64,000 bases of DNA, taken from contig DASQUK010000057.1 of assembly GCA_035641315.1 (NCBI GenBank), forward strand, positions 1,268 to 65,267, written 5' to 3'. Both the position numbers and the translations under genes were made by a program. The notes under the pieces are model-generated. The model ran no database searches, was not told the origin of the DNA, and saw nothing but the letters and a program-made list of their open reading frames with translations. This DNA comes from Acidimicrobiales bacterium (GTDB taxonomy: Bacteria; Actinomycetota; Acidimicrobiia; Acidimicrobiales; VFJN01). Positions 13,691 through 57,340 of this stretch are shown here, piece by piece (position 1 is the stretch's first letter; every line of letters starts with the position of its first letter).

Positions 13691-13723
13691 CCCGTTCTTG
13701 GCCTTCGGTCGGGCCGCTCTGGC
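13691..13723 (+). repeat. REP-like unit (degenerate copy)
   Basis: CCCGTTCTTGGCCTTCGGTCGGGCCGCTCTGGC compared with the family consensus CCCGCTCTTGNNGCTTCGCNNCGGGCCGCTCGGGC. Confidence 0.6.
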
Positions 13724-13737
13724 TGTCGACGTGTTGT

Positions 13738-13800
13738 CGCCCGCTCCCGCGGCCGCTCGGGCCGGGCTCGCTCTCTCGCCCCTACGGGGACGCTCGCTCA
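13738..13800 (+). repeat. REP-like unit (long form with CTCGCTCTCTCGCCC…GACGCTCGCTCA tail)
   Basis: …CCCGCTCCCGCGGCCGCTCGGGCCGGGCTCGCTCTCTCGCCCCTACGGGGACGCTCGCTCAGG is nearly identical in its tail to 52140..52188. It overlaps the last 6 codons of lysE. Confidence 0.75.
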
Positions 13801-14432
13801 GGCCGGCCACTCGCCGCCAGGCGGACGCCCAGGCCGATCATGGTCAGCCCGCCGACGCCCCCGAGGGCTTCCAGCCGGCGCGGCGAGCGGGCCAGCCAGC
13901 TGCGAACGGACCCGGCCAGCATCCCCCAGGTGCTGTCCGACACCACGGCGATGCCGACGGCGATGGCCCCGAGCGCCAGCATCTGCAGCGCCACCGGCGC
14001 CCCGCCCGGATCGACGAACTGCGGCAGGATCGCCGTGAAGAACACGATCCCCTTGGGGTTGCTGATGCCCACCACGAACCCCTCTACGGCCAGGCTGTGC
14101 CGCCAGCTGGTCGCGGCGCCCACGTCGAGGACCTCCGCCAGCTCCCGCCGGTGCCGGATGGCCTGGACGCCGAGGTACACCAGGTAGGCCGCGCCGAGCA
14201 ACCGGACGGCGTTCAGAAGCACCACCGAGCGCTCGATGACGGCGCCGACGCCGAGGGCAACGGCGACGACCTGCATGTAGACGCCGGCGGCGTTGCCCAT
14301 GGCGGTGACGACCGCTGCCCGGCGTCCCAGCGCCACACCCCGGCTCACGACGAACAGCACGCTCGGCCCCGGCACCACGATCAGCACGAATGCGGCCACG
14401 GTGAACGAGGCGAGCGCGTGCGAGTCGACCAC
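13782..14432 (-). CDS. LysE/RhtB family amino-acid exporter
   Basis: 216 aa with 6 TM segments. N-terminal …FVLIVVPGPSVLFVVSRG… and …GISNPKGIVFF… are LysE-family hallmarks. Confidence 0.85.
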   Translation of the reverse strand: MVDSHALASFTVAAFVLIVVPGPSVLFVVSRGVALGRRAAVVTAMGNAAGVYMQVVAVALGVGAVIERSVVLLNAVRLLGAAYLVYLGVQAIRHRRELAEVLDVGAATSWRHSLAVEGFVVGISNPKGIVFFTAILPQFVDPGGAPVALQMLALGAIAVGIAVVSDSTWGMLAGSVRSWLARSPRRLEALGGVGGLTMIGLGVRLAASGRPERASP

Positions 14433-14449
14433 CGCCGCGACCCTAGGGG

Positions 14450-14497
14450 CTTCTGCCCGCGCTCACCGCGCCATTTGCGTCTCAGCGCGGGCAGAAG
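14450..14497. promoter_or_regulatory. Perfect 14-bp inverted repeat in the lysE/serS divergent intergenic region
   Basis: CTTCTGCCCGCGCT-(20 nt)-AGCGCGGGCAGAAG, ending 21 nt upstream of the serS ATG. It could be an operator or a leader hairpin. Confidence 0.5.
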
Positions 14498-14518
14498 GGC
14501 TGGGTAGCCTCGGCGTCC

Positions 14519-15838
14519 ATGCTCGACATCCGCCGGATCCGCAGCGAGCCCGAGGCCGTCAAGGCCGCGCTCGACCGCCGGGGTCCGGGCACCTCCGAGC
14601 CCATCGACAGGGTGCTCGCCATCGACGCCGAGCAGCGCCGGATCATCGCCCAGCGTGACGACGTCCGCAGCCAGATCAAGGTGTTGTCCAAGCAGGTCGG
14701 CCGCCTCCGCGGCCAGGGCAAGGGCGACGAGGTCGAGGCGGCCATGGCCCGGAGCCGGGCGCTCGGCGACGACGAGGAGGCGCTCGCCAAGGCGGCCAGC
14801 GTGCTCGCCGACCAGGTCCGCACCGAGCTGCTCGCGCTGCCCAACCTGCCGAGCGACGATGCGCCCCACGGCACGGGCGAGCGGGACAACGTCGTGCTGC
14901 GCACCGAGGGCTTCGACGCGGGGGCCTACGGCGAGCATCAGCGGGTCCCACACTGGGAGATCGGCGCCGAGCTCGGCATCCTCGACAACGAGCGGGCCAC
15001 GAAGATCTCGGGCTCGATGTTCACCATGTACCGGGGCTGGGGCGCCCGGCTGCTGCGGGGCCTGGTGCAGCTGAGCCTCGACCGCAACGCTGACACCTAC
15101 GAGGAGATCCGCCCGCCCACCCTCGTGCGCACCGAGACGATGGTCTCGACCGGACACCTCCCCAAGTTCGCCGACGAGGCGTACCACATCGAGCGCGACG
15201 ACCTGTGGGCCATCCCGACCGCCGAGGTGCCGCTCACCTCGCTGCACGGCGGCGAGATCCTCGACGCCGCCGACCTCCCGCTGCGCTACATGGCCTACAC
15301 GTCGTGCTTCCGCCGCGAGGCTGGCTCCGCCGGCAAGGACACCCGGGGCCTGTTGCGGGCCCACGAGTTCGACAAGGTCGAGCTGCTGGCCGTGGCCGCC
15401 GACCGCGAGCAGGCGATCGCCTGCCAAGAGGACGTGCTGGCCCGCAGCGAGGGCCTGCTGCGGGACCTGGGGCTGGCGTACCGGGTGGTCGACCTGTGCA
15501 CCGCCGACCTGAGCAACTCGGCCGCGCGCACGTGGGACCTCGAGGCCTACGCCCCGGGCGTTGACCAGTGGCTGGAGGTGTCGTCGGTGTCCTGGTTCGG
15601 CGACTACCAGGCCCGCCGGGCCAACATCCGCTGCCGCCCGGCCGAGGGCGAGGTGAGCGGCGGAAAGAGCAAGGCCAAGGGCACCGAGGTGGCCCACACC
15701 GTCAACGGCTCGGCCATGGGTTGGCCGCGCACGGTGGCCGCCTACCTGGAGACCCACCGCCGGCCCGACGGCACGGTGGCGATCGTCGAGCCGCTCCGCC
15801 CCTATCTGGCCGGCGCCGAACGCATCCCGCCCCAATAG
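14519..15838 (+). CDS. serS: Seryl-tRNA synthetase
   Basis: 439 aa. N-terminal coiled-coil arm (MLDIRRIRSEPEAVKAAL…) and class II core (…TSCFRREAGSAGKDTRGLLRAHEFDKVE…, …NGSAMGWPRTVAAYLE…). Confidence 0.95.
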   Translation: MLDIRRIRSEPEAVKAALDRRGPGTSEPIDRVLAIDAEQRRIIAQRDDVRSQIKVLSKQVGRLRGQGKGDEVEAAMARSRALGDDEEALAKAASVLADQVRTELLALPNLPSDDAPHGTGERDNVVLRTEGFDAGAYGEHQRVPHWEIGAELGILDNERATKISGSMFTMYRGWGARLLRGLVQLSLDRNADTYEEIRPPTLVRTETMVSTGHLPKFADEAYHIERDDLWAIPTAEVPLTSLHGGEILDAADLPLRYMAYTSCFRREAGSAGKDTRGLLRAHEFDKVELLAVAADREQAIACQEDVLARSEGLLRDLGLAYRVVDLCTADLSNSAARTWDLEAYAPGVDQWLEVSSVSWFGDYQARRANIRCRPAEGEVSGGKSKAKGTEVAHTVNGSAMGWPRTVAAYLETHRRPDGTVAIVEPLRPYLAGAERIPPQ

Positions 15839-15855
15839 GGCTCCGACGCTGTCCG

Positions 15856-15893
15856 TCCCGCTCTTGCCGCTTCGCGGCGGGCCGCTCGGGCCC
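15856..15893 (+). repeat. REP-like unit
   Basis: TCCCGCTCTTGCCGCTTCGCGGCGGGCCGCTCGGGCCC, with the small hairpin GCCGC-TTC-GCGGC. Lies just after the serS stop. Confidence 0.8.
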
Positions 15894-15996
15894 AGGGGCC
15901 ACTCGACTCCCGCCAGACCGGCGTAACCACTAACCTCGCAGGGTCCCCTTCTCCCCTCGAGGGACATCGCCGCCGAGTCAGGGAGATCCTTCAGCA

Positions 15997-18492
15997 ATGC
16001 GACGCGTATGGGCTTGGATGGCCCTCAACTTCGGCAAGCACGCCGGCATCGTCGGGGCCATCGGCCTGGCGATCACCCTCGTGCTCGGCATCGGCGCCAC
16101 CAAGCTCGACTTCGCCACCGGCCAGGACTCGTACCTCAACAAGGACGAGCAGGTCTACGAGGACAACGTCGCCTACCAGGGCCTGTTCGGCGGCCAGGCC
16201 ATGCTCACCTTGTTCACCATGGACGAGGGCAGCGGCGTCGTCGACCTGTTCACGCCCGAGAACATCGCCCACCTGCAGGACATCGACGAGCAGCTCCACG
16301 CTGTCGACGGCGTCGAGGCGGTCGTCACGCCGCTGACCGCCCTGCAGTTCACCCAGAACCTGGCGGTGAGCGACAGCGGCGATCCCACCCAGAGCGTCGC
16401 CGGCCGGGCGCTGCTCGGCGCTCGCGCGCGCGAGCCCGACCCGGCCGCCAAACAGATCCGCCTCGACGACGCCGCCACCACCCTGGGGCGCCTCAACGAG
16501 ATCCCCGAGGACCAGCGCACGTTCGACAACCCCGAGTGGGTGCAGTTCCTGCTGTACGACAACCGAGGCGAGATCCGGAAGTCGCTCCGCCCGTTCTTCC
16601 CCGACGAGACCCACGCGCAGCTGGTCACACGCCTGGTCGGCAACGCCTCGCTGGAGGACGAGGGCAACGCCAGCGAGGCCGTGCAGGACATCACCCTGGC
16701 CGAGCCCTTCGATGGCGCGGAGGTCACCTCGACCGGGGCGCCGGTGCTCCTCAAGGACCTGAACCGCTACCTGCGGGGCGGCATGTTCACGCTGGGGGCC
16801 ATCGCGGTGGCGATCATGGTCGTGATCCTGCTGCTGCTGTTCGGCGTGCGCTGGCGGCTGCTGCCCTTGGCCGTGATCCTCGTCGGCCTGGTGTGGGCCT
16901 TCGGGCTCGCCGGGTACCTCGGCATCCCGCTGTCCGTGGTGACCATCGCCGGGCTGCCCGTCATGCTCGGCGTGGGCATCGACTACGCGATCCAGATGCA
17001 CTCCCGCATCGAGGAAGAGGTGGTGATCGACCGCTCGGCCCACCCCATCCAGGAGGCGTCGGTCAACCTGGGCCCCGCGCTGCTGGTCGTCACCTTCGAC
17101 GCGGTGTTCGCTTTCCTGGCGCTGCGGTTCGCACGGGTGCCGATGATCCGCGACTTCGGCCTGCTGCTGGCCGTGGGCATCGCCGTCATCTGCGTCGCCA
17201 GCATCGTCGTGCCGCTGGCGGTGCTCGGCATCCGTGAGTACCGCTCGCCCACCAAGGGCAAGGACTTCAGCCACGGCGTGCTCGCCAAGCTGGTCGTATG
17301 GCTTGGCAGCCTGCCGACCCGCCTGGCCGTGCCGATCGCGCTCGCCAGTGCCGCCGTCTTCGCCGGCGGGATCCTCGTCGAGGACGATCTCACCATCCAG
17401 AGCGATCCCGAGGAGTGGGTCAACCAGGACAGCCAGGTGATCGACGACATCGACGCCATCAAGCGCGAGACCGGGTCGTCGGCCGAGCTGGGCATCTTCG
17501 TCGAGTCCGACGACATCTTCAGCGACGACACCGCGGCCTTCGTCACCGACTTCGCCAACGAGCAACTGGCGGAGCGGCCCGACGACCTGCTCACCGCCTC
17601 GTCGCTCGTGACCACGGTCAGCTTCCTGTTGGAGATGCCCGACACGACGGTGCTCCCGCCGACCGGTGACGATGTGCGGCGGGCGTACAGGGTGGCGCCG
17701 CCCGACATTCAGAGGGCGCTCGTCAACCCCGACGCCGGGGCACTCAACCTGGTGTTCCGCACCGCCCCCGGCTCGCTCGACCACCGCGCCGTCTACGTCG
17801 ATGCCATCCGCGACGAGCTCGAGTCCGGCAACCTCGACGACGGCGACCCCATCCCCGGGGACGTGCGGGCCACGCCTTCGGGCTTGGCGGTGGTGGGCGT
17901 CGGCCTGCTGGAGAACATCGAGTCCAACCGCATCCTGCTGACCTATCTGGCGGTGGCGTTCGTGTTCGCCTACCTCGTGGTGCGGCTGCGCAGCTTCGTG
18001 CGGGCACTGCTGTCGATGGTGCCCGTGCTGACCGCCGTGGGCGCGGCCTCGCTGGTGGCGTGGATCTTCGACCTCCAGCTCAGCCCGATGACCGCGGTGG
18101 GCGGACCGCTGGTCGTCGCGGTGTGCACGGAGTTCACATCGCTGATCCTGCTGCGGTTCATCGAGGAGCGGCGGCGCGGTTACAGCCCCCAGGAGGCGAT
18201 CGACGTCACCGCCCGCCGCACAGGTCGGGCATTCATCGTGTCGGCGCTCACCGCCATCGCGGGTGTGGCGGTCATCGCCTTCTCGTCGCTGCCGTTGCTG
18301 CGCGACTTCGGCATGATCGTGGCCATGAACGTGGCGGTGGCGCTGGTGTCGGCGCTCGTGTTCCTGCCGCCGATGCTGGTGTGGGCCGAGAACCGCGGCT
18401 GGGTCACCCGGGGCATGCTGCCGACGCCGCCGACGGCGCCGACCCCGGCACGCGGTCCCGAGGTGCCCCGCCAACCGGTCGCCGGCTCGTGA
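15997..18492 (+). CDS. MMPL/RND-superfamily membrane transporter
   Basis: 831 aa with two 6-TM bundles, each preceded by a large extracytoplasmic domain (MMPL architecture). The 827-aa antisense ORF is a mirror artefact. Confidence 0.85.
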   Translation: MRRVWAWMALNFGKHAGIVGAIGLAITLVLGIGATKLDFATGQDSYLNKDEQVYEDNVAYQGLFGGQAMLTLFTMDEGSGVVDLFTPENIAHLQDIDEQLHAVDGVEAVVTPLTALQFTQNLAVSDSGDPTQSVAGRALLGARAREPDPAAKQIRLDDAATTLGRLNEIPEDQRTFDNPEWVQFLLYDNRGEIRKSLRPFFPDETHAQLVTRLVGNASLEDEGNASEAVQDITLAEPFDGAEVTSTGAPVLLKDLNRYLRGGMFTLGAIAVAIMVVILLLLFGVRWRLLPLAVILVGLVWAFGLAGYLGIPLSVVTIAGLPVMLGVGIDYAIQMHSRIEEEVVIDRSAHPIQEASVNLGPALLVVTFDAVFAFLALRFARVPMIRDFGLLLAVGIAVICVASIVVPLAVLGIREYRSPTKGKDFSHGVLAKLVVWLGSLPTRLAVPIALASAAVFAGGILVEDDLTIQSDPEEWVNQDSQVIDDIDAIKRETGSSAELGIFVESDDIFSDDTAAFVTDFANEQLAERPDDLLTASSLVTTVSFLLEMPDTTVLPPTGDDVRRAYRVAPPDIQRALVNPDAGALNLVFRTAPGSLDHRAVYVDAIRDELESGNLDDGDPIPGDVRATPSGLAVVGVGLLENIESNRILLTYLAVAFVFAYLVVRLRSFVRALLSMVPVLTAVGAASLVAWIFDLQLSPMTAVGGPLVVAVCTEFTSLILLRFIEERRRGYSPQEAIDVTARRTGRAFIVSALTAIAGVAVIAFSSLPLLRDFGMIVAMNVAVALVSALVFLPPMLVWAENRGWVTRGMLPTPPTAPTPARGPEVPRQPVAGS

Positions 18493-23042: not shown

Positions 23043-23980
23043 CGCCGTGTGCCGTAGACGCCGTAGACCGCGAGGATCAGCGCGGCGAGCACCACCCCCA
23101 CGGTGACGGCGATGCGCACCGAGCCCGTGCGCTGGATCCAGTCGCTGACGTCATAGGACCAGCCGGTTACCACGTCGGTGATGCTCGACGACGGGATCAC
23201 GCCGCCCGACGCCCGCGCCACCCGCACCTCGAGCCAGCCGTAGTAGGCCACGTAGGCGCCGGCCAGCGCCACCAGCCCGCCCGCCACCCGACCGATGTAG
23301 GGCTGGACCCGGCGCAGGAACCGCACGACCGAGGTGCGCGCCAGCGCCATGGCCACCGTGAGCCCGGTCAGCACCAGCGTCATGCCCAGGGCGTAGATGC
23401 CGAACACCAGCAGGCCGTCGGCCACCGACTCCCGGTTGATCGTGCCCGATACCGCGGTGAGGAACAGCGGCAGGGTGCAGCCGATCGAGGCGATGGCGTA
23501 CGACACGCCGAACACGAACATCGACGGCGCCGTCCGCTCCCGGCCGCCCCGGTCCAGCCGGGGCAGCTTCACGTTGAGCTCGAAGCCGCCGAGCATGGCG
23601 AGGCCGAGCGCGAACAGCGCCAAGCCGATGACGATCGAGATCCACGGCACGTTCTCGTAGACGGGCAGCGACGTCAGCTCCACCGCCAGCCCCGCCAGCG
23701 CGAAGACGGCCATGAACCCGGCCGACACGGCTAGCGCCACTCGCAGCGCGGTGGCGACGCTCGCCCGGGCCTCGCCCACCTCCCGGCCCGAGACACGTCT
23801 CCCGCTCCCACGGCCGCTCGGGCCGGGGGAGCGGAAGGCATGTTCGTCGATCCCCAGGAAGTAGGCCAGGTAGGCGGGCAGCATGGCGAACCCGCAGGGG
23901 TTGACGGCGGCCACCATGCCCTGGGTCAGGAACAGGGCGAGCGGCCCCTCGGGGCCGATGCGGGCGAGCACGCCGATCAC
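22985..23980 (-). CDS. ccdA: Cytochrome c biogenesis thiol-reductant transporter CcdA (DsbD-family), with an enlarged first loop and C-terminal extension
   Basis: …AAVNPCGFAMLPAYLAYFLG… and …ASIGCTLPLFL… are the two CcdA Cys motifs. The GTG at 23980 overlaps the resA-like stop (GTGA). The 3' end overlaps convergent pdxH by 58 nt, so the C-terminus is uncertain. The upper part of the track ORF 22985..24850 is read-through. Confidence 0.8.
   Translation of the reverse strand: MIGVLARIGPEGPLALFLTQGMVAAVNPCGFAMLPAYLAYFLGIDEHAFRSPGPSGRGSGRRVSGREVGEARASVATALRVALAVSAGFMAVFALAGLAVELTSLPVYENVPWISIVIGLALFALGLAMLGGFELNVKLPRLDRGGRERTAPSMFVFGVSYAIASIGCTLPLFLTAVSGTINRESVADGLLVFGIYALGMTLVLTGLTVAMALARTSVVRFLRRVQPYIGRVAGGLVALAGAYVAYYGWLEVRVARASGGVIPSSSITDVVTGWSYDVSDWIQRTGSVRIAVTVGVVLAALILAVYGVYGTRRQGARRSMRQPDDRVVSRQ
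23798..23838 (+). repeat. REP-like unit (short hairpin form) lying in frame inside ccdA
   Basis: TCTCCCGCTCCCACGGCCGCTCGGGCCGGGGGAGCGGAAGG has the same core as 43215..43252. It is translated on the minus strand as …AFRSPGPSGRGSGR… within the first CcdA loop. Confidence 0.75.
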
Positions 23981-24564: not shown

Positions 24565-24618
24565 GGGCTACGACCGTACCGCCGGGGCTCGTATCATCGG
24601 CAATCGCCCCGACCCGCC

Positions 24619-24657
24619 GGCCTGGGGGCACCGCCGCCGCGCGGTGGCCCCCAGGCC
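24619..24657 (-). terminator. GC-rich hairpin immediately downstream of the whiB7-like stop
   Basis: GGCCTGGGGGCACC-(10 nt)-GGTGGCCCCCAGGCC forms a ~14-bp stem. There is no clear U-tract, so it may be a factor-independent terminator or only a stabilising hairpin. Confidence 0.5.
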
Positions 24658-24668
24658 TCGTGCAGGAC

Positions 24669-28293: not shown

Positions 28294-28326
28294 GCTGCTT
28301 CCGCTCTCGGGCCACTTCGTGGCGTG

Positions 28327-28390
28327 GACCGCTCGGGCTTCGACGCTAGGTCTCTCGCTCCTGGTGCTTCGCACCGGGCCGCTCTGGCCG
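28327..28390 (+). repeat. REP-like dimer fragment
   Basis: GACCGCTCGGGCTTCGACGCTAGGTCTCTCGCTCCTGGTGCTTCGCACCGGGCCGCTCTGGCCG is collinear with the reverse complement of 47741..47815. Small hairpin GGTGC-TTC-GCACC. Confidence 0.75.
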
Positions 28391-28413
28391 TGGCGAGCCT
28401 ATTGGCCGGGTGG

Positions 28414-42536: not shown

Positions 42537-43298
42537 ATGGCGAGTGGTGGCAAGCGGCAGGCGCGCAAGATCCCCGAAGCCACCGTCAGCCGCCTCCCGC
42601 TCTACCTCCGCAGCCTCCTCGAGGTCGCCGACGAGGGCATGCCGACCATCTCGTCGGAACGGCTGGCCGAGATGTCCGGCGTGAACGCCGCCAAGGTGCG
42701 CAAGGACCTCAGCTACCTCGGCAGCTACGGCACCCGCGGCGTCGGCTACGACGTCGAGTACCTGCTGTTCCAGATGAGCCGCGAGCTCGGCCTCACCCAC
42801 GACTGGCACGTCGTGATCGCCGGCGTCGGCAACCTCGGGCACGCGCTCGCCAACTACGCCGGGTTCCACGAGCGGGGCTTTCCCGTGGCCGCCCTCGTCG
42901 ACGCCGACCCGCGGGTCATCGGCACCGAGGTCAACGGCATCGCCGTGCGGCACATCGACGACCTGCCGGCCATCGCCGCCCGACAGGAGATCGCCATCGG
43001 CATCATCGCCACGCCCGCCAGTGCCGCCCAAGAGGTGGCCGACCGCATGATCGCAGCCGGCGTCAGCTCCATCCTCAACTTTGCGCCGACGATCCTGTCG
43101 GTGCCGCCCGAGGTGTCGCTCCGCAAGGTCGACCTGGCGGTGGAGCTGCAGATCCTGAGCTTCTACCAGCAGCGCAAGGTCGCAGCCGAGCGCGTCGCAC
43201 CGCCCCGAGACATGCCTTCCGCTCCGACGGCCGCTCGGGCCGGGGGAGCGGGCGACGTGCCCGCCGGCGAGGCGGCCGTCGCTCGGCCCGGGAGCTGA
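42537..43298 (+). CDS. rex: Redox-sensing transcriptional repressor Rex
   Basis: …IPEATVSRLPLYLRSL…, Rossmann motif …VIAGVGNLGHALANY… and …ILNFAP…. The C-terminal ~45 aa is a low-complexity extension partly encoded by a REP-like unit. Confidence 0.92.
   Translation: MASGGKRQARKIPEATVSRLPLYLRSLLEVADEGMPTISSERLAEMSGVNAAKVRKDLSYLGSYGTRGVGYDVEYLLFQMSRELGLTHDWHVVIAGVGNLGHALANYAGFHERGFPVAALVDADPRVIGTEVNGIAVRHIDDLPAIAARQEIAIGIIATPASAAQEVADRMIAAGVSSILNFAPTILSVPPEVSLRKVDLAVELQILSFYQQRKVAAERVAPPRDMPSAPTAARAGGAGDVPAGEAAVARPGS
43215..43252 (+). repeat. REP-like unit (short hairpin form) inside the 3' end of the rex ORF
   Basis: CCTTCCGCTCCGACGGCCGCTCGGGCCGGGGGAGCGGG has the same core as 23798..23838. 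Confidence 0.75.
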
Positions 43299-43313
43299 CC
43301 CGCCGGTTCAGCC

Positions 43314-45187: not shown

Positions 45188-45193
45188 GCGCCC

Positions 45194-46102: not shown

Positions 46103-46185
46103 CCCGCCCGTGACCCCGCGTTCTCGCGCCTGGAATGGTCGCCAGGGCGGCCGATTCTGGCGCGAGAACACGTAGGTTCCGCGCA

Positions 46186-47709: not shown

Positions 47710-47740
47710 TCTGGCTGAGGCTGCGCCGACAGGCGCAGCC

Positions 47741-47830
47741 TCGGGCCCGAGCGGCCCGGCGCGAAGCGCCAAGAGCGGAAGGTACAGCGTCGAAGCCCGA
47801 GCGGCCCGCTGCGAAGCAGCAAGAGCGGGA
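47741..47830 (-). repeat. REP-like tandem dimer
   Basis: The plus strand carries two units, GCCCGAGCGGCCCGGCGCGAAGCGCCAAGAGCGGAAGG and GCCCGAGCGGCCCGCTGCGAAGCAGCAAGAGCGGGA, joined by TACAGCGTCGAA. Small hairpins are GGCGC-GAA-GCGCC and GCTGC-GAA-GCAGC. Confidence 0.85.
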
Positions 47831-47875
47831 GCCGCGCCGCGTGGAGTCGGCGCGGGCTCGCGCCGGCTCGCAGCC

Positions 47876-48604: not shown

Positions 48605-48609
48605 CGGGG

Positions 48610-49928: not shown

Positions 49929-51092
49929 CTAGTACGAGAACGGCCAAGTGACGAACCAGGTCTTGACCCGGAACCAGAACGCCGCCAAGCCGCGTGGCTC
50001 CAAGAGCAGGAACAAGACGATGGCCAGCCCGAACAGGACCGCGTTGAGCTCGCCGATGGTGAAGATGCCCGGCTCGCCGGACCGGGTGGTGATCAACGGG
50101 TCGAAGATCGCCTGCCCGCTGTTCTGCTCGATGAGGGAGCGGCCCCCCAACACGAACAGCGCGCCGATGATGGAGCCGAAGATGGTCCCCAGCCCGCCGA
50201 TGATGATGATGGCCACGTACGTGATGGCCAAGAACAACCCGAACTCGCTGGGGCTCACGTATTGCTGCAGCAACCCGTAGAGGGCGCCCGCCACCGCGGC
50301 GTAGGCGCTGGACCAGGCGAAGGCACCGACCTTGTAGCGTGCCGGGCTCACCCCGATCACCTCGGCGGACAGGTCGCGGTCGCGGATTGCCTGCATGGCC
50401 CGGCCCGCCCGGCTGCGTACCAGGTTCTTGGCCAGGAGCGCACCCAGCACGACCAGTGCCCAGACCAGCCAGAAGAAGCTCTGCTCGAAGGTGTAGGTCT
50501 CGCCCCCCAGCTCCAGGCCCTGCTTGAAGTCGAGCGGGCCCAAGGACATCGGCGCCGCGCCCAGGCTGATGCCATTCCCGCCGCCCGTGACGCTGTCCCA
50601 GTTGTTCCACAGGTGCTCGCCCAGGAACACCAGCCCCAGGGTCACCACCACCAGGTAGTTCCCCCGCAGCCGCAGGGCGAAGGGTCCGATCACGCCGCCG
50701 ACCACGAAGCCGAGCAACGCCGCGAAGGCGAGGTAGGCGGGCATCGGCCAGCCCCGCTGAGCGCCGAAGTAGGCCGCGGCGTAGGCGCCGACCCCGACGA
50801 AGAAGGCATGACCGAGGGAGATCTGCCCCGTGTAGCCCGTCAGCAGGTTGAGGCCGATGGCGCCGATGGCATAGATGCCGCAAAGCGACATCACCCGCAG
50901 CCCGGGGTCACCGAGATAGGTGGGCAGCAACAGGAACAGCACGAGCCCGCCCACGACGACGACCCACCGCCACGGCGTGCGCCATGGGCTGCGCAGCAGC
51001 TTGATCTCGTCCGCGTAGGAGAGGGTCAGGTCCCGTGCCGGGCCGCTGCGGCCCGGGCGCAGGCCTGTCGTGAGCGCATGGGTGATCGCCAT
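49929..51092 (-). CDS. Branched-chain amino acid-type ABC permease (LivM-like)
   Basis: …IGLNLLTGYTGQISLGHAFFVGVGAY… is a LivM hallmark. The ATG at 51092 abuts the livH-like stop. Confidence 0.85.
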   Translation of the reverse strand: MAITHALTTGLRPGRSGPARDLTLSYADEIKLLRSPWRTPWRWVVVVGGLVLFLLLPTYLGDPGLRVMSLCGIYAIGAIGLNLLTGYTGQISLGHAFFVGVGAYAAAYFGAQRGWPMPAYLAFAALLGFVVGGVIGPFALRLRGNYLVVVTLGLVFLGEHLWNNWDSVTGGGNGISLGAAPMSLGPLDFKQGLELGGETYTFEQSFFWLVWALVVLGALLAKNLVRSRAGRAMQAIRDRDLSAEVIGVSPARYKVGAFAWSSAYAAVAGALYGLLQQYVSPSEFGLFLAITYVAIIIIGGLGTIFGSIIGALFVLGGRSLIEQNSGQAIFDPLITTRSGEPGIFTIGELNAVLFGLAIVLFLLLEPRGLAAFWFRVKTWFVTWPFSY

Positions 51093-52027
51093 CAGACGCG
51101 CCGCACCTCCCGGGTGCCGAACAGCCCATAGGGCCGGATGAGCAGGATCACGATCATCACCAGGTACGGCGAGACCCGCTCGAAGCTGTCGCCCACCCAG
51201 TCGAAGTACTCCGGCGCCAGCAGGGCGGTGAACTGCTGGACGAGGCCGATGATGATCCCGCCCACCACCGCCCCCAGCGGCGAGTCCAGCCCGCCGAGGA
51301 TGATGGCCGGAAATGCGACCAGGGCCAGCGCGCCGGTGGCGGGGCTGAGCTGGCCGGCGCCGGCGGCCAGCGTGGCGCCCGCCAGGGCCGCCACCACCCC
51401 GGCAATGGCCCAGGCCACCCGGTGGACGCGACGGGCGGGGATCCCCTGAGCCATGGCCACCTCGGGGTCGAACGCCGCCGCGCGCATGGCCAGGCCCAGA
51501 GTCGAGTACCGGAAGAACACGAAGAACGCTGCCATCGCCACGGCCGCGAACCCGATGGTCCACAGGTCACGGTCGGCGACGGTCACGCCCGCCAGCTCGC
51601 GGGTCTTGATGCCCCAGGGATCGCCGAGGTTGTGGTTGTCCGGGCCCCAGATCGCGGTGACCACGTTGTTCAGCACGAACAGCAGCCCGATGGTCACCAT
51701 GATCAGCGCCGCCGGCGGCTCGCCGACCAGCCATCGCAAGACCAGCGCCTCTGTGATCACCCCGATCAGCGCCCCCACCCCCATGGCGATCACCAACGAG
51801 AGGTAGAAGTTCTGGTCCCAGGTCTGGGAGAAGTTGAAGGTTAGGTAGGCGCCGAGCAGGACGAGGCTGGCTTGGGCGAAGTTGATGACACCGGTGGCCT
51901 TGAAGACCACGGAGAACCCCAGGGCGATCAGCGCGTACTTGCACCCCACCGCCAGTCCCGAGAACGCGGTCTGCAGCAGGTCGTCACGCGTGATGACCGC
52001 CAGGATCGGCGCCCCGAGCCCGCTCAT
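51092..52027 (-). CDS. Branched-chain amino acid-type ABC permease (LivH-like)
   Basis: …GCKYALIALGFSVVFKATGVINFAQ…. Confidence 0.85.
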   Translation of the reverse strand: MSGLGAPILAVITRDDLLQTAFSGLAVGCKYALIALGFSVVFKATGVINFAQASLVLLGAYLTFNFSQTWDQNFYLSLVIAMGVGALIGVITEALVLRWLVGEPPAALIMVTIGLLFVLNNVVTAIWGPDNHNLGDPWGIKTRELAGVTVADRDLWTIGFAAVAMAAFFVFFRYSTLGLAMRAAAFDPEVAMAQGIPARRVHRVAWAIAGVVAALAGATLAAGAGQLSPATGALALVAFPAIILGGLDSPLGAVVGGIIIGLVQQFTALLAPEYFDWVGDSFERVSPYLVMIVILLIRPYGLFGTREVRRV

Positions 52028-52040
52028 CGGCGTGCGTCCG

Positions 52041-52190
52041 ACGGGCCGATGAGCGGTCGCTCAGCGGCGAGCGACGCACCGTGCTTCTGACTCGCTCCCT
52101 TGCGCTCGCTCATTGCTCCCCGCTCTTGCTGCTTCGCAGCGGGCCGCTCGGGCCTCGCTCGCTCTCTCGCCCTCCGGGACGCTCGCTCAT
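52041..52190 (+). repeat. Composite REP-like element (full unit plus flanking hairpins) inside the liv/acyl-CoA ligase operon
   Basis: The core at 52117..52186 is CCCCGCTCTTGCTGCTTCGCAGCGGGCCGCTCGGGCCTCGCTCGCTCTCTCGCCCTCCGGGACGCTCGCTCA. It is preceded by the hairpins GTCGCTC-AGCGGC-GAGCGAC and GCAC-C-GTGC. The element abuts the ligase stop codon. Confidence 0.85.
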
Positions 52191-54894: not shown

Positions 54895-55760
54895 TACATC
54901 CCCCAGCTCTTGCGTCGGCGGTACGTCTTGACGTTGCGGAACGAGCGACGCTCCGCGGAAGGGTTCATGCCCAGGTAGAACTCCCGGATGTTCGAGTCGG
55001 CCAGCAGCTCGTCACCGGACCCCGACCGGACCACCCGGCCCTGCTCCAGCACCAGCCCGTGGTCGGCGATGGCGAGCGCCATGGTGGCGTTCTGCTCCAC
55101 CAGCAACACGCTGGTGCCCTGGGTGTTGATGTCGACGACGAGGTGGCGGATCTGCTCGACGACCAGCGGAGCAAGGCCAAGCGACGGCTCGTCGAGCAAC
55201 AAGAGGCGGGGCGACGACATGAGCGCCCGGCCCATGGCCAGCATCTGCTGCTCGCCCCCGGACAGGTAGCCCGCGATCTGACGGCTGCGCTGCTTCAACA
55301 CAGGGAACAGCTCCATCACTCGGTCGCGGCTCTCCGCCAAGCCCGCCCGGTTGGTGTAGGCGCCGGTGCGCAGGTTCTCGTCGACGGTCAGCTCGGCGAA
55401 GGTCCGGCGGCCTTCCATCACTTGGGCCAAGCCCGCTCGGACCCGTCGGGCGGGGTCGTCGTGCGTGATGTCGCGCCCGGCGAGCGTGATGCGCCCCTTG
55501 GTGACCTTGCCCCGGTGCACAGGGAGGAGGCCGGTGATCGCCCGGAGGAGCGTTGTCTTGCCGGCGCCGTTCGCCCCCAGCACGGCGACGATCTTCCCCG
55601 GGGGCACGGCCACGCTGACCCCGCGGAGCACGAGCACGACGTCGTTGTAGACGACCTCGAGGTTGGCCACCTCGAAGTCGTCCGCGGAGGCCTCCGCTCG
55701 GTCCCCGGCGCGCGGCGATGTCGCCCCCGCCACCCGCTGCTCGGCCATAGGTTGCCCCAT
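54894..55760 (-). CDS. ABC transporter ATP-binding protein (LivF-like)
   Basis: GANGAGKTT, LSGGEQQMLAMGRAL, LLLDEPSLGLAP and …IREFYLG. Confidence 0.9.
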   Translation of the reverse strand: MGQPMAEQRVAGATSPRAGDRAEASADDFEVANLEVVYNDVVLVLRGVSVAVPPGKIVAVLGANGAGKTTLLRAITGLLPVHRGKVTKGRITLAGRDITHDDPARRVRAGLAQVMEGRRTFAELTVDENLRTGAYTNRAGLAESRDRVMELFPVLKQRSRQIAGYLSGGEQQMLAMGRALMSSPRLLLLDEPSLGLAPLVVEQIRHLVVDINTQGTSVLLVEQNATMALAIADHGLVLEQGRVVRSGSGDELLADSNIREFYLGMNPSAERRSFRNVKTYRRRKSWGM

Positions 55761-55870
55761 GTGCTGGTCCCCCCGGATCTGGTGATCGCTACGTTAGTGA
55801 CGTTCGTCGCATTGGGGGAGATGCAGTTCAGCATGTCGTCCGGACCGCGGGGCGAGCTCGACGAGCTGGG

Positions 55871-57193
55871 TCACGACGACGGGACGCCGGCAATGGATAC
55901 CGGCTTGGTCTCCACATCGAACGACCCGAGCGAGGCCAGCACGACGGCGGTGTCGTCGACCGACAGGTCAGTGTTGAAGCTGACCATCGTCACTCCGTCG
56001 GACACCGTGCCCCTCGTCGACGCCCAGCTCTCCTCGGCTCGGCCCGAGAACGACCCGGCGCGGAACGGCTCGCCCCAAGCGATGCCGCGGCGGCCCATCT
56101 GGGCATGGCACCTGTCCGAGGTGACTCCCAGCGACAGCCACCCATCCGATACCGCCCCCAGGTCGCGGTAGTCGAGGCTGAGCCAGGGGCAGTGCTGGGG
56201 TAGCCCCATGGTCCCGTCACGGGTTGCCCGCGCGTCCGTCAGCGCCCAGCCGGCTGGCACCCGGCCCAGCTCGAGGGCCTCCACACCGGCGGCATCGAGG
56301 ACATCGACTGGCACGGTGCCGCGTGCCGGGTCGCCGATCTCGGCCGGCGTGATGAGCTCGGGCTCTCCCAGCCGCTCGACGGCAAGCTCGACCACGAGTT
56401 GGGGATCATCGACCGGCGCGGAGCTCACGACGATGTGGTCGAGGTCGCCCGCCTCGTCGAGCACCAGTGACACCTCCGCTCCCGCCAAGAGATCGCCGTA
56501 GCGTAGGTGAGGGGTGTTCATCGGGACCGCGCCGTGGAGCGAACGGCGTCCGGTCGGGTCGGGCGGTTCGCTGCGCCGGTTGCCGGCTGACCGCACGACG
56601 TCGGCCACCAACGCGATGCCCAGTCGATTCGGCCGGGCCGCGTCGAAGGCGCCCGGTGAACGCAGTCGCGCCATGCCGGGCGACACGACCACCTCCCACG
56701 GCGCCTGGGCCAGCCCGCCGGTGCTCGACGCAGTGCGGCTCCACGCGGTTCGTCCAGACGTGACGGTCTCGACCGCCCGGCCTCTCGCATCGACCGCAAC
56801 TTCCCGTGTGATGGAATGGGGCAGCAGCACCGCGCCCTCGACGGTCACATCCCGTGCGAGCCACGTCCCTGGCCGCATCGGGCTGGGCCCGGTGGCGTGC
56901 ACCGAGCCGCGGTAGGCAAACGACCCGGCTTGTCCAAACCGCCGCACCGCTTCGGTGTAGGCGACATGAGCGGTGTCGGCTTGCGGACGCTCGTCGGAAC
57001 CGTCGCCTCGACCGGCTCGCCCGCCACCATCTCGCATCAACACCAGCAGGCCCGATGCCACCAACCCGGCGAGCACGATGAAGGCAACCACCCGAGTCCA
57101 CCGACTCGGCTCGCGGACGACCCGTCTCGAAGACGCGCCGCGACCGTAGCCGCGTCCGATGGATCTCGTTCTGCCCGCGCCCGCTCGCGCCAA
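55871..57193 (-). CDS. Membrane-anchored hypothetical protein (single N-terminal TM, large extracytoplasmic domain)
   Basis: Lower part of track ORF 55871..57793; the upper part is antisense to hemB and was rejected. The TM is …VVAFIVLAGLVASGLLVL…. I recognised no family. The start is uncertain (TTG 57193 suggested). Confidence 0.5.
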   Translation of the reverse strand: MARAGAGRTRSIGRGYGRGASSRRVVREPSRWTRVVAFIVLAGLVASGLLVLMRDGGGRAGRGDGSDERPQADTAHVAYTEAVRRFGQAGSFAYRGSVHATGPSPMRPGTWLARDVTVEGAVLLPHSITREVAVDARGRAVETVTSGRTAWSRTASSTGGLAQAPWEVVVSPGMARLRSPGAFDAARPNRLGIALVADVVRSAGNRRSEPPDPTGRRSLHGAVPMNTPHLRYGDLLAGAEVSLVLDEAGDLDHIVVSSAPVDDPQLVVELAVERLGEPELITPAEIGDPARGTVPVDVLDAAGVEALELGRVPAGWALTDARATRDGTMGLPQHCPWLSLDYRDLGAVSDGWLSLGVTSDRCHAQMGRRGIAWGEPFRAGSFSGRAEESWASTRGTVSDGVTMVSFNTDLSVDDTAVVLASLGSFDVETKPVSIAGVPSS

Positions 57194-57274
57194 CGCGATT
57201 GGGCGCGGGCAGATGTTGGTGCGCAGGGGTGGCGGAACCCGTTGCCTCGGGTCGTACCATGCCCGGAGTGAGCG

Positions 57275-57340
57275 AGCGTCAGCGAGCGAACCATCGGTAC
57301 AGTGCGTTACTCGCCGCGAAGCGGCGAAAGCTCGTTGCCG
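57275..57340 (-). repeat. Degenerate REP-like unit upstream of hemB
   Basis: GGAGTGAGCGAGCGTCAGCGAGCGAA…CTCGCCGCGAAGCGGCGAAAGC carries the TGAGCGAGCG submotif and the small hairpin GCCGC-GAA-GCGGC. Confidence 0.6.

Follow-up and report, generated by a model that had tools for sequence, protein, structure and literature searches.

The GC-rich repeats dispersed over the window (the whole stretch of DNA analysed, 64,000 nucleotides) belong to a short mobile repeat family of uncultured soil Acidimicrobiia that is real and has no earlier name. The copies in the window are probably modular, non-autonomous mobile repeats of Acidimicrobiia, about 45-170 nt in length, that behave like MIRUs, which are interspersed repetitive units of mycobacteria (Supply et al. 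1997, in the summary given by PMC12548453). An initial annotation had listed nine loci of a dispersed family, and the features described were present at all nine. The pattern CCGCTCTTGNNGCTTCGCNNCGGGCCGCTCGGGC with at most three mismatches matched the window five times (15858+, 28355+, 47745-, 47795-, 52120+) and none of 100 dinucleotide-preserving shuffles, indicating a family beyond chance. A covariance model (R1) of 80 distinct copies, taken from the window and elsewhere, was searched against the window with filters off and gave ten clear copies (E < 0.02) and one marginal match (Table 1), while 140 matches were found outside the window across 98 other loci. The initial annotation had named a scan for more copies as a refutation test; at least 106 further stretches were found in public genomes and, among the matches listed, most were in MAGs of Acidimicrobiales/Acidimicrobiia. 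It had recognised no named family either, and we found no match in Rfam, no paper containing the core string in a literature search and no copy in the plasmids and viral contigs searched.

Common to every unit is a 45-nt core. On the informative strand, GGCCCGAGCGGCCCG and four variable nt stand before GAA, and four complementary nt and CAAGAGCGGGAAGCA after it. The initial annotation had used the opposite strand, on which the GAA triloop appears as TTC. The 5' tetranucleotide varies between GTGG (the commonest variant), GGGG, GAGG, GGAG and GAAG. Ahead of the core stands, as 5' module, either TGA followed by GCGAGCGTCCC..GGGCGAGAGAGCGAGCG (the MSER type) or a hairpin of 9-14 bp whose loop is GAYA (the hairpin type), and some units also have, as 3' module, the 5' hairpin in an imperfect inverted form. 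The second shared module noted earlier (13766-13800 and 52152-52188) was confirmed and is also present in many other genomes. The element starts immediately 3' of a TGA, sometimes a TAA, which is mostly the stop codon of a real upstream gene; among 40 independent hairpin-type units, the distance from the end of this stop to the hairpin is 0 or 2 nt in 16, and the stop is within 12 nt in 23. Hairpin-type units are 105-150 nt long, have no ORF and cannot code for a transposase. An inverted repeat is missing from the 3' end of the MSER type, whose 3' boundary (..GGGAAGCAA, then TGA) is nevertheless sharp at many independent loci. Short forms lack the hairpin between two GAGCGG direct repeats and may have arisen by deletion between them.

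Table 1. Copies of the repeat family in the window and the units that they form.
Feature	Position	Strand	R1 score	Context or content
Core	52113-52157	-	70 bits	
Core	47791-47835	+	64 bits	
Core	15851-15895	-	63 bits	
Core	47741-47785	+	59 bits	
Core	28348-28392	-	50 bits	
Second complete core	28294-28342	-	30 bits	Own stem CCAC/GTGG
Degenerate full core	13685-13727	-	30 bits	
Hairpin-less short form	23795-23827	-	22.8 bits	
Hairpin-less short form	43212-43244	-	22.1 bits	
Hairpin-less short form	13734-13766	-	19.9 bits	
Marginal copy	57313-57331	+	13 bits, E = 0.43	Hairpin part only
Complete MSER-type unit (mini-ORF 1)	52110..52190	-		Encodes MSERPGGRESERGPSGPLRSSKSGEQ, then stop
Degenerate, older unit without GAA hairpin (mini-ORF 2)	52024..52113	-		Encodes MSERKGASQKHGASLAAERPLIGPSDARR, then stop
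Hairpin-type composite, two cores	47716..47875	+	59 + 64 bits	3' of cobA/hemD (46135-47709)
Direct dimer	28294..28392	-	50 + 30 bits	DNA-ligase gene (28414-29388) / HATPase_c_2-like gene (27901-28293)
Decayed composite	13681..13800	-	19.9 + 30 bits	LysE gene (13782-14432) / ABC ATPase gene (12655-13653)
Linker fragment and complete core (15851-15895)	15839..15895	-	63 bits	Stem GCCGC/GCGGC
Short palindromic form	23795..23838	-	22.8 bits	Inside CcdA/DsbD_TM-like gene 22985-23980 (-)
Short palindromic form	43212..43252	-	22.1 bits	C-terminal tail of Rex ORF (42537-43298, +)
Probable degenerate unit	57262..57349	+		GAGTGAGCGAGCGTCAGCGAGCG ... GCCGC-GAA-GCGGC; upstream of hemB (start near 57350)

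Two units are chained between the AMP-binding gene (52187-54034) and the BPD_transp_2 permease gene (51092-52027). The stop (TGA) of the AMP-binding gene is overlapped by the ATG of mini-ORF 1 (52190-52188), the TGA of which (52112-52110) overlaps the next ATG; this unit contains the 5' module, given earlier as CTCGCTCTCTCGCCC...GACGCTCGCTCA, and a core with the hairpin GCUGC-GAA-GCAGC. The ATG of mini-ORF 2 overlaps the stop of mini-ORF 1, and its TGA (52026-52024) in turn overlaps the permease gene's ATG (52027). The 47.7-kb tandem dimer, reported to lie in opposite orientation, is indeed a direct dimer on the opposite strand: a TGA (47716-47718) is followed by the 5' hairpin GGCTGCGCC-GACA-GGCGCAGCC at 47719-47740, a core with stem GGCGC/GCGCC, the linker ACAGCGTCGAAGCCC, a core with stem GCTGC/GCAGC and a 3' hairpin at about 47829-47860, and the composite ends at the TTG start of a HAD hydrolase gene (about 47876). 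Its predicted fold has an MFE of -100.1 kcal/mol (z = -2.2). At 28327-28390 the repeat was present, but this range covers only half of a second complete core; the stems of the dimer are GGUGC/GCACC (28348-28392) and CCAC/GUGG (28294-28342), and it ends in ...GAGAGCGGAAGCAGC with an ATG directly downstream (28293-28291). In the decayed composite at 13681..13800, the 5' module (13766-13800, preceded by CTGA instead of ATGA) is followed by a short-form and a degenerate full core, no ATGA overlaps are left and the LysE ORF extends six codons into the element. The copy at 15839..15895 is antisense to the flanking plus-strand genes SerRS (14519-15838) and MMPL (15997-18492). Placement at gene ends and operon junctions, as first described, proved right in that most copies are intergenic, but two short forms lie in frame inside ORFs. 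One encodes ...AFRSPGPSGRGSGRR... in the loop that follows transmembrane helix 1 of the CcdA/DsbD_TM-like protein, and the other is antisense in the tail of Rex, beyond its Pfam domains, which end near residue 184 of 253. For the degenerate copy reported at 57275-57340 the GCCGC-GAA-GCGGC hairpin was found and the R1 match was marginal; the unit is a probable but weak member of the family.

Copies at operon junctions form a mini-ORF (MSERP...GPSGPLRSSKSGKQ, then stop) between two ATGA overlaps, one on the stop of the upstream gene and the other on the start of the downstream gene, the latter 9 nt after CAAGAG. Such composites were in frame in 24 of 25 cases, not all of them independent loci as some are orthologous, and their nine lengths (72, 78, 93, 102, 117, 126, 132, 153 and 171 nt) are all multiples of three, which has been kept through many indels. 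In L133, ATGA...ATGA is kept in frame though the core is read in another frame. A long high-GC3 ORF starting with ATGA exactly 9 nt after CAAGAG was seen for 20 of 113 cores. The upstream flank was co-directional for 77 copies versus 23, and counted per locus the ratio was 20:4 for the MSER type and 20:10 for the hairpin type (p = 0.10 for the latter). As exceptions, the ATGA overlaps are lost at 13.7 kb of the window and in L067, and the copies at 15.86 kb and 43.2 kb of the window are antisense. Through the mini-ORF, ribosomes may terminate and then re-initiate across the insert; translational coupling of both genes would therefore be kept and the insertion would be nearly neutral, which would account for the persistence of such copies in operons.

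Related metagenome contigs contain empty sites, each a single ATGA, GTGA or TGATG stop/start overlap. At the AMP-binding/permease junction, the genes overlap by a single ATGA or GTGA without any unit in L115-L148, while L113, L114, L119 and L120 show ATGA-unit-ATGA with a unit orthologous to 52024..52113 of the window. The window has in addition the 78-nt core unit (52110..52190), which is absent in L113, L114, L119 and L120. Likewise, L050 is empty (GCG-TGATG-GTG) and L067 is filled (TGA/GCGAGCG...GCACG/ATG), and further pairs are L047 (empty) with L096 (filled) and L121 (empty) with L133 (filled). Therefore, we conclude that the elements are mobile now or were so recently. The start after TGA, the in-frame mini-ORFs chained by ATGA overlaps and the empty sites had all been missed by the initial annotation.

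Compensatory change in the stem, proposed earlier from a few stems that were correctly read, held when many aligned copies were examined. The 5-bp stem at the GAA triloop was paired in 99.0% of cells over the 80 distinct copies, compared to 80.6% in shuffles, and in 11-62% when the partner was slid. Three of the five stem pairs had changed on both sides (67 cells), with pair types including CG/GC, CG/UA/AU/GC and GC/CG/AU/UA. None of 500 shuffles reached the observed percentage of paired cells, the number of both-side-changed cells or the covariation score; the number of pairs changed on both sides was non-discriminating (294 of 500 shuffles). The loop and its closing pair (C-GAA-G) were invariant in 79 of the 80 copies while the inner stem varied. 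The stem changes swap residues of the peptide (LRSS versus PRSG), which is therefore not what is constrained, and we infer that the hairpin is constrained at the nucleic-acid level. It is highly improbable that the mini-ORFs encode a functional small protein and that the repeats are paralogous small genes. The peptide does recur across genomes with a conserved C-terminal half, and most copies retain its start and stop signals; on the other hand, it is of low complexity, its residues change pairwise (L..S to P..G) following base pairing and not chemistry, L133 keeps an open frame with the core in a different one, hairpin-type units have no ORF, and the same DNA is also found antisense and inside other proteins.

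The compensatory changes could also stem from mechanical quasi-palindrome correction, by intrastrand template switching or gene conversion between copies, and not from selection. The almost always perfect stems (99%) with very few intermediates would agree with this, as would the likeness of stems within a genome (CTGC/GCAG in MFD09267.bin.2.303, CCGC/GCGG in the 'long' subtype) and the tandem arrays, which suggest frequent inter-unit recombination. However, an invariant C-GAA-G beside a varying inner stem resembles constraint and not drift with repair, and we regard this origin as distinctly unlikely. Template switching requires extrusion of the hairpin in vivo, and a structural role would therefore not be removed.

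The 5' hairpins, read on the GAA strand, contained 13 G.T pairs and no A.C pairs (25 distinct hairpins), with only about four independent G.T events because many of the pairs descend from one common variant. The loops of the family, GCGAAGC and C-GAYA-G, belong to a class of very stable DNA mini-hairpins, in which d(GCGAAGC) has a Tm of 76.5 °C, GCGACAGC of 72 °C and GCGATAGC of 71 °C, whereas the corresponding RNA, r(GCGAAAGC), has a melting point of 39 °C (PMC13037366). This asymmetry, in G.T bias and loop class, points to one folded strand. In enterobacteria, REP/BIME stem-loops protect mRNA, set processing sites or affect translation, and the hairpins of the family might similarly be selected as RNA, as intercistronic or 3'-end stem-loops that guard mRNA from exonucleases, set processing sites or tune the next gene, with mobility being secondary. 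The sense-strand bias relative to flanking genes (77:23 by copy, 20:4 for the MSER type), the G.U-compatible wobbles on the sense strand only, the 5' hairpin 0-2 nt after the stop codon and composites folding somewhat better than shuffles (z about -2) would all fit. We nevertheless consider selection as RNA unlikely: both loops are exceptionally stable as DNA and much weaker in RNA, the core hairpin lies inside a presumably translated mini-ORF and would be melted by ribosomes, hairpin-less and antisense copies persist, no Rfam family matches, and the sense bias of the MSER type is needed anyway to leave both genes intact. The copies have no U-tract and are therefore not intrinsic terminators.

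We tentatively favour, as the most likely mechanism, a role of the GAA hairpin as the subterminal hairpin at the right end of the top DNA strand. A HUH/Y1-type enzyme (IS200/IS605- or RAYT-like) would recognise it in single-stranded form and insert the element 3' of TGA. We found no transposase of any kind in the window, and none, including RAYT/Y1, was seen beside elements in about 1.2 Mb of related loci, although the tblastn search used was a weak test. Against a HUH enzyme stand the imperfect terminal inverted repeats of the hairpin-type unit, its orientation bias of only 2:1 (p = 0.10) and the same T-N-A on both sides in 8 of 13 units, which fits a DDE enzyme with a 3-bp duplication better. 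Insertion sequences of the IS1031 group have GAG ends and 3-bp TNA duplications. The elements could be classical MITEs moved by a DDE transposase duplicating T-N-A (IS5-family IS1031-like or PIF/Harbinger-like); the central hairpin would have no part in transposition, and the stop-codon position would reflect TGA/TAA as tolerated T-N-A sites in a 72% GC genome. In agreement, GAG begins the hairpin-type repeats (GAGGCTGCGCCGAYAGG compared with GAGCGTGCGCGGACAGG as reverse complement), the inverted repeats reach about 50 nt in the 'long' subtype, T-N-A is found at both ends and is identical in 8 of the 13 units for which both ends could be read, with the rarer pairs TCA..TCA and TAG..TAG among them, MSER-type units have TGA on both flanks, and the weak orientation bias also fits. 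Against this, identical triplets in 8 of 13 compared to about 5 of 13 by chance are only suggestive, the L050/L067 pair allows at most 1 nt duplicated in the present sequences, no IS with these ends was found, and the MSER type is sharply bounded without a 3' inverted repeat. Moreover, in distant genomes conservation is much stronger in the 45-nt core than in the supposed inverted repeats, and a transposase that binds these repeats would predict the opposite. We see a MITE origin as rather improbable.

Known systems resemble the family in different parts. Rickettsia palindromic elements (RPE) are short palindromic repeats tolerated in frame inside protein-coding genes, similar to the short forms in the CcdA-like loop, the Rex tail and the permease N-terminus of L120; in the family, however, only short forms are found in genes and most copies are intergenic, the host is unrelated and no sequence relationship is known. 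IS5-family/TNA MITEs share with the hairpin-type unit a length of 105-150 nt, imperfect GAG-starting inverted repeats, T-N-A flanks and the lack of transposase coding capacity, but in the family the centre is most conserved, a 3' inverted repeat is lacking in the MSER type, the search gave no parent IS and target duplication is only suggestive. PATE-like elements derived from IS200/IS605, which Y1 HUH transposases move as single-stranded DNA, resemble the MSER type in having subterminal hairpins instead of inverted repeats, and the likeness extends to strand-specific insertion immediately 3' of a short fixed target, G.T pairs on one strand only and stable DNA-hairpin loops, although neither a Y1 transposase nor any pairing of guide sequence with cleavage site was found and TGA on both sides is equally readable as a duplication. 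With REP/BIME/REPIN sequences the family shares GC-rich extragenic palindromic units with a hairpin kept by compensatory change, a position at gene ends, mosaic modular arrays and a conserved short motif 5' of the structure (GTGG in its commonest variant), and a single-strand DNA hairpin is a plausible recognition feature in both. Still, 'REP-like', as the family was first called, fits only loosely: its arrays are direct tandems and not inverted REPIN doublets, its 5' tetranucleotide varies, no RAYT (TnpA_REP) or Y1 was seen in the sampled DNA (again a weak test), and REPs have neither in-frame mini-ORFs nor the precise placement behind a TGA. MIRUs insert at start codons and carry a coupled ORF at -4 spacing (PMC12548453). 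Like the family, they are short units of tens of nucleotides, often in direct tandem arrays, intergenic within operons and oriented with the flanking genes, and their small ORF starts on the upstream stop and stops on the downstream start (ATGA, -4 spacing), whereby coupling is thought to be kept. The likeness is one of described features, the host being Mycobacterium in one case and uncultured Acidimicrobiia in the other; particular to the family are a 45-nt core that is strongly conserved and includes a covarying GAA-triloop hairpin, another architecture in which the ends are inverted-repeat hairpins and no ORF is present, and hairpin-less forms in frame inside proteins. By analogy, and with MITE and REP features fitting in part, the closest counterpart of the family is MIRU and not REP, because of its start after TGA, its ATGA-chained in-frame mini-ORFs and the empty sites in relatives.

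The sequences quoted in the initial annotation were read directly in the window and are present at each of the nine loci that it listed. The full core pattern, with up to three mismatches allowed, matched five times in the 64-kb window and never in 100 dinucleotide-preserving shuffles, and a 12-nt half-core occurred 16 times against 5.4 expected. The window has a G+C content of 68-77% along its whole length and a gene content of ordinary housekeeping functions. A covariance model was built from 80 distinct copies of the 45-nt core (stem-GAA-stem) and the window was searched with it with filters off. All nine loci were recovered, and the model found five strong cores (50-70 bits), two weaker complete cores (30 bits each) and three short forms (20-23 bits), which lack the hairpin between their two GAGCGG direct repeats. 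Coordinates are collected in the table.

Public genomes, one per GTDB species, were scanned with the pattern CTCTTGNNNNTTCNNNNCGGGCCGCTC, in which the stem was left free. At least 106 stretches matched, nearly all in MAGs labelled Acidimicrobiales or Acidimicrobiia and several under other labels, and one tested window gene was identical to contigs of ENA soil metagenome assemblies. Large contigs with copies of the family include CAWJGJ010000001.1 (3.3 Mb), CAWIMB010000002.1 (4.0 Mb) and CAVTKV010000009.1 (1.0 Mb). Judged by its repeat family and base composition, the window probably belongs to Acidimicrobiia. Matches in Oscillospiraceae, Sideroxydans and Kribbella (L032, L057 and L085) were rejected as Walker-A (GPPGxGKS) coding DNA with non-complementary 'stems'; matches with such 'stems' in other unrelated taxa, which also lack the flanking context of the family, were rejected too. 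Read in the frame of the mini-ORF that it carries, one core of the window is itself one base away from a P-loop; the resemblance is probably a coincidence, yet a trap for pattern searches. A similar element was found neither in Rfam, PLSDB and IMG/VR nor, by core string, in the searchable literature. At the gathering threshold Rfam recognised only tRNAs in the window, and a permissive Rfam scan of four array-bearing loci (L001, L013, L061 and L101) gave no match at E <= 1. With no family matches among the IMG/VR viral contigs and PLSDB plasmids, a phage or plasmid origin was rejected. The literature searched held nothing on MITEs of Acidimicrobiia, nor on MITEs with translational coupling. The family is real, and it is a new and widespread element of a kind already known.

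The initial annotation had proposed that the stem of the core hairpin changes by compensation, and this proved sound. Over the 80 distinct copies, 99.0% of the stem cells are paired, whereas column shuffling gives 80.6% and sliding the partner 11-62%, and changes on both sides were seen in three of the five stem pairs (67 cells). None of 500 shuffles matched the observed percentage of paired cells, the cells changed on both sides or the covariation score, while the count of pairs with a both-sided change was reached by 294 of the 500 and does not discriminate. Fully complementary 4-nt stems are present in 107 of 121 pattern matches (the stretches listed and the window), with at least eleven different stem sequences, and the loop with its closing pair, C-GAA-G, is practically invariant across the 80 copies. 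That further copies might be lacking, or that the covariation might vanish, had been considered in the initial annotation; neither is the case, since the covariation holds in 80 copies and the covariance model finds 140 copies in 98 loci among the scan matches listed.

Viewed together with their flanks, the copies show a modular structure. The informative strand is the reverse complement of the one given in the initial annotation, and on it the core reads (C)GTGGCCCGAGCGGCCCG-NNNN-GAA-NNNN-CAAGAGCGGGAAGCA. Two kinds of 5' module precede it. The MSER module (mini-ORF MSERP...) consists of TGA followed by GCGAGCGTCCC-small variable hairpin-GGGCGAGAGAGCGAGCG and corresponds to the second shared module of the initial annotation. 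The hairpin-type module is a 9-bp stem closed by a GAYA loop (GGCTGCGCC-GAYA-GGCGYAGCC), and in its 'long' subtype the stem has 10-14 bp around about 35 nt. Hairpin-type units also have a 3' module, which repeats the 5' end imperfectly and in inverted form; such a unit is 105-150 nt long in all and MITE-like in appearance. A linker (..ACAGCGTCGRAGCCC) and short hairpin-less units of 39 nt connect the units head to tail. Each kind of unit is exemplified in the window, which also holds two tandem dimers, and arrays of 39-nt and about 100-112-nt units occur in four loci from other genomes (L089, L013, L061 and L101). MIRU-VNTR serves for strain typing in tuberculosis, and variation in tandem copies of the present family could type strains of soil Acidimicrobiia.

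Three further observations concern the structure and distribution of the units. Among the hairpin-type units considered (window 47719-47740 and L003-L099), the 5' hairpin of some genomes carries tandem G.A/A.G mismatches (GGCCGAGCC-GAYA-GGCGAGGCC) in place of the Watson-Crick pairs at positions 5-6; this variant is recurrent and not random decay. In three different MAGs, a second, unrelated palindromic repeat of about 65 nt (TCCGCCTAGATCGACACC...GGTGTCGATCTAGGCGGA) splits the core after GGCCCGA and before GAGCGGCCCG; this nested mobile element seems to target the GAA-core family. The 'long' subtype (5' hairpin GGCTCCGCAAAT...ATTTGCGGAGCC) was also seen in MAGs labelled Acidobacteria (B3T1L10, B11T1B8), Kiloniellales (07C-BC-St03_bin.26, St04_bin.11) and Actinomycetota (KW1-S11_42), and cores occur in the Chloroflexota-labelled MAG B46T1L10. 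Behind the unexpected labels lies either the mislabelling of bins from a single lineage or horizontal spread across phyla.

Coordinates of the repeat copies and associated features (window positions unless a locus handle, L plus number, marks a stretch from another public genome or metagenome)
Feature	Location	Strand	Detail
Weaker complete core	28294-28342		30 bits; own stem variant CCAC/GTGG; half-covered by the range in the initial annotation
Marginal model match	57313-57331		13 bits, E = 0.43
Tandem dimer	47741-47835
Tandem dimer	28294-28392
5' hairpin of hairpin-type unit	47719-47740
Mini-ORF	52190-52110	-	MSERPGGRESERGPSGPLRSSKSGEQ, then stop
Mini-ORF	52113-52024	-	MSERKGASQKHGASLAAERPLIGPSDARR, then stop
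Core in mini-ORF frame	52113-52157		SGP(L/P)RS(S/G)KSGKQ
Short form in CcdA/DsbD_TM-like gene	23795-23838		in frame
CcdA/DsbD_TM-like gene	22985-23980	-	Pfam E = 1.6e-6
AhpC/TSA-thioredoxin-like gene	23977-24564	-
Long spurious ORFs	22688-23734; 23995-24810	+	no Pfam match
Short form in Rex tail	43212-43252		antisense
Tail of Rex ORF	43212-43298		about 35 residues
LysE ORF end within repeat	13782-13800		six codons, ..PERASP, then stop
Haem-biosynthesis neighbourhood	42537-47709; 57350-59698
Three-tRNA cluster	1-228	-	one gene cut by window edge
Single tRNA	32954-33026	+
30-nt mini-ORF insert	L123 1385-1420; L125 2262-2297; L127 3415-3450
Nested palindromic repeat	L028 ~2484-2600; L044 ~1182-1300; L105 ~2140-2240
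Deletion pair	L012 1954-2032; L066 1670-1673		97.5%-identical MAG contigs
'Long' subtype	L001, L004, L009, L012, L019, L024, L026, L036, L039, L042, L055, L066, L070, L076, L079, L082-L084, L086, L095, L098, L100-L103

The design of the element had been overlooked in the initial annotation: its bridging mini-ORF fits it to ATGA junctions between genes. At the 5' end of the MSER class (NTGA), the TGA is the stop codon of the upstream gene and NTG opens the mini-ORF, being ATG in most units and GTG or TTG in some, while at the 3' end (CAATGA) the TGA closes the mini-ORF and the ATG starts the real downstream gene. The composites between NTGA and ATGA are in frame in 24 of 25 cases, with lengths of 72, 78, 93, 102, 117, 126, 132, 153 and 171 nt, every one a multiple of three, and the sole exception runs in frame into the next unit. 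A long high-GC3 ORF follows 5-16 nt after 29 of 113 family cores, and in 20 of those 29 it starts with ATGA exactly 9 nt past CAAGAG. The element junctions of the window lie inside operons; two chained mini-ORFs link the gene of an AMP-binding enzyme to the first permease gene of a branched-chain amino-acid ABC transporter operon. With the hairpin type, 16 of 40 independent units have the stop of a long upstream ORF 0 or 2 nt ahead of the 5' hairpin and 23 have it at most 12 nt away, and the preceding triplet is TGA, TAA or TAG in 27 of the 40 and TCA in two. The 5' boundary comes directly after TGA/TAA in all MSER units and filled/empty pairs. We infer from this arrangement that the mini-ORFs are translated and that translational coupling between the flanking genes is preserved.

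The AMP-binding/permease junction was read in 80 metagenome loci encoding relatives of the window permease. In L115-L148 (59-88% protein identity) the two genes overlap directly by ATGA or GTGA, whereas in the closer relatives L113, L114, L119 and L120 (89-93%) the junction consists of ATGA, a 60-78-nt unit that is open and in frame, and a second ATGA. The window contains the older unit of these four loci and an extra 78-nt unit bearing the core. Comparing every locus with every other one yielded further pairs: L050 has an empty site (..GCG-TGATG-GTG..) where L067 is filled (..TCC-TGA, the element GCGAGCG...GGGAAGCACG, then ATG-GTT..), and L047 is empty (GTGA overlap) and L096 filled (ATGA...ATGA). 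The next junction of the same operon is empty (TGATG) in L121 and the window, and in L133 the next operon junction holds a unit of MSER and degenerate core between two ATGAs, in frame, but with another frame used to read the core. These comparisons show the elements to be insertions that are polymorphic among close relatives and land at the stop/start overlap. Conservation concerns the openness and phase of the frame, and not a peptide. A functional small protein was rejected accordingly: its residues follow the base pairing, L133 uses a different frame, and an ORF is absent from other architectures. Stem changes exchange residues pairwise (LRSS to PRSG), and the hairpin constraint therefore acts on nucleic acid. 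Public metagenomes already show sites with and without the element, nine variants in length and two architectures, which amount to many natural experiments on movement and expression.

The pair L012 and L066 was rejected as a filled/empty pair, as a 78-nt deletion has removed half of a long-type element together with about 40 nt of flank; elements serve also as deletion sites. At the permease1/permease2 junction, three loci carry another in-frame bridging insert, a 30-nt mini-ORF (e.g. ATGCCGCGTCGCACCGGAGCTGGCCGCTGA) with TGATG on both sides, which has no sequence relation to the core family, and in L121 and the window nothing interrupts the TGATG at this site.

Some copies lie inside genes or at their ends. 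The short form in the CcdA/DsbD_TM-like gene adds ..AFRSPGPSGRGSGRR.. after the first transmembrane helix, and the matched stretch of this protein is about 23 residues longer than the matched part of the Pfam profile. The gene, which escaped the GC3 ORF filter, overlaps by GTGA with the stop of the AhpC/TSA-thioredoxin-like gene, and the plus strand of this region bears long spurious ORFs. Another short form is found in antisense orientation past the domains of Rex, where the C-terminal tail of the Rex ORF runs through it; the LysE ORF likewise extends into a repeat, and in L120 an in-frame short form is found in the N-terminus of the second permease. Through the elements spurious small ORFs arise, real ORFs (LysE, Rex) become longer and proteins (CcdA-like) gain peptides, and annotation pipelines will mishandle such element-derived ORFs and insertions. 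Repeat copies also stand at three junctions (43.2, 47.7 and 57.3 kb) of a haem-biosynthesis neighbourhood that comprises Rex, a sirohaem-synthase-like NAD-binding protein, a cobA-hemD fusion, hemB (ALAD), a probable hemL and, by position only, probable hemA and hemC. No copy is adjacent to the tRNA genes of the window.

As regards the strand, the upstream flank (250-550 nt from the copy) has the direction of the GAA strand for 77 copies and the opposite one for 23. With each locus counted once, the ratio is 20:4 for the MSER type (p = 0.0015) and 20:10 for the hairpin type (p = 0.10). On the GAA strand, 25 distinct 5' hairpins show 13 G.T and no A.C pairs, the 13 representing roughly four independent events, and this asymmetry indicates that the GAA strand is the one that folds. 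GCGAAGC is the classic DNA 'mini-hairpin', with a Tm of 76.5 C; the C-GACA-G and C-GATA-G loops belong to the same class (72 and 71 C), and the RNA counterpart is far weaker, r(GCGAAAGC) melting at 39 C (PMC13037366). A role at the RNA level, as a stem-loop right after the stop codon or as an intercistronic stabiliser, is possible but less well supported: compared with shuffles, the composites have only a moderate folding advantage (z about -2), and no Rfam family matches. An intrinsic terminator was rejected, there being no U-tract after the hairpins and many copies lying within operons.

Loop identity, wobble strand, orientation and the strand-specific position 3' of TGA, together with the sharp 3' end of MSER units without any inverted repeat, make us lean tentatively, and with limited confidence, towards top-strand DNA hairpins that would be recognised by an HUH/Y1-type enzyme. 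A TGA is found on the 3' side of MSER units too, which is equally compatible with target duplication. Hairpin-type units have imperfect terminal inverted repeats starting with GAG, and in 8 of 13 the same T-N-A stands on both sides, as a TNA-duplicating DDE transposase leaves; such an enzyme might move these units instead. The eight identical triplets compare with about five expected, which is suggestive and not decisive, the duplication in the L050/L067 pair is 1 nt or less, and the MSER type has no 3' inverted repeat. No transposase or integrase was found by Pfam among the 31 window ORFs, and no transposase of the HUH or DDE class in the window or in 8-kb pieces of the other genomes. A tblastn search of about 1.2 Mb of loci with approximate IS608 TnpA and E. 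coli RAYT queries, a weak test, returned only hits with E > 0.1, and the same 1.2 Mb held no full-length IS with the same ends, nor any end away from a core that suggested one. ORFs between opposed cores in L082 and L101 were also considered; they are housekeeping genes (rsmG, parA, parB) or unknown, with no transposase.

A further scenario seems to us less likely than not: a stop-codon-seeking selfish element, moved as ssDNA by an HUH-type enzyme reading the ultra-stable GAA mini-hairpin, would have colonised ATGA junctions by means of a bridging mini-ORF that leaves translational coupling intact, and spread through uncultured Acidimicrobiia, possibly also into the MAGs labelled Acidobacteria, Kiloniellales and Chloroflexota. 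If true, it would offer a tractable, highly polymorphic model for the movement of MIRU-like repeats, for which, to our knowledge, no mechanism has been known since 1997, and would show mobile DNA fitted to the way in which its host organises translation.

Among known systems, REP/RAYT, DDE-MITEs and IS200/IS605-derived elements each leave at least one defining feature without a clear fit. Like REP/REPIN sequences, the family consists of short extragenic palindromes in which compensatory changes maintain the stem. REPs have an invariant GTAG-like tetranucleotide 5' of the hairpin; here GTGG stands before the core in the commonest variant, and GGGG, GAGG, GGAG and GAAG occur as well. In contrast to the inverted doublets of REPINs, its arrays have direct cores; cores on both strands occur only in four loci and the window, kilobases apart. 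The terminal inverted repeats of MITEs are imperfect in the hairpin type and absent at the MSER 3' end, and a parent IS with the same ends was not seen in about 1.2 Mb. IS200/IS605-type elements have subterminal hairpins and insert 3' of a specific short target on one strand; the 5' boundary after TGA/TAA would suit this, but the TGA on the 3' side fits a duplication equally well. MIRUs are apparently mobile units inserting at start codons, with an internal ORF coupled to the downstream gene at -4 spacing, which probably minimises the effect of insertion (2025 review, PMC12548453). Three of four MIRU features are shared: short, often tandem units in intergenic operon regions; a unit ORF overlapping the upstream stop and the downstream start (24 of 25 composites); and the orientation of the flanking genes (MSER 20:4, all copies 77:23, hairpin type only 20:10). 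The hosts differ, being the M. tuberculosis complex and M. leprae for MIRUs and MAGs labelled Acidimicrobiales/Acidimicrobiia here. Since the host differs and the likeness is one of lifestyle, we call the family MIRU-like and not MIRU. In the searchable literature, in-frame bridging repeats in operon stop/start overlaps are discussed for the MIRUs of mycobacteria alone. That an apparently sequence-distinct family of another actinobacterial class shares this lifestyle points to convergence or to a common strategy of old date, and implies that 'coupling-preserving' insertion is a general way for selfish DNA to persist in gene-dense, high-GC genomes.
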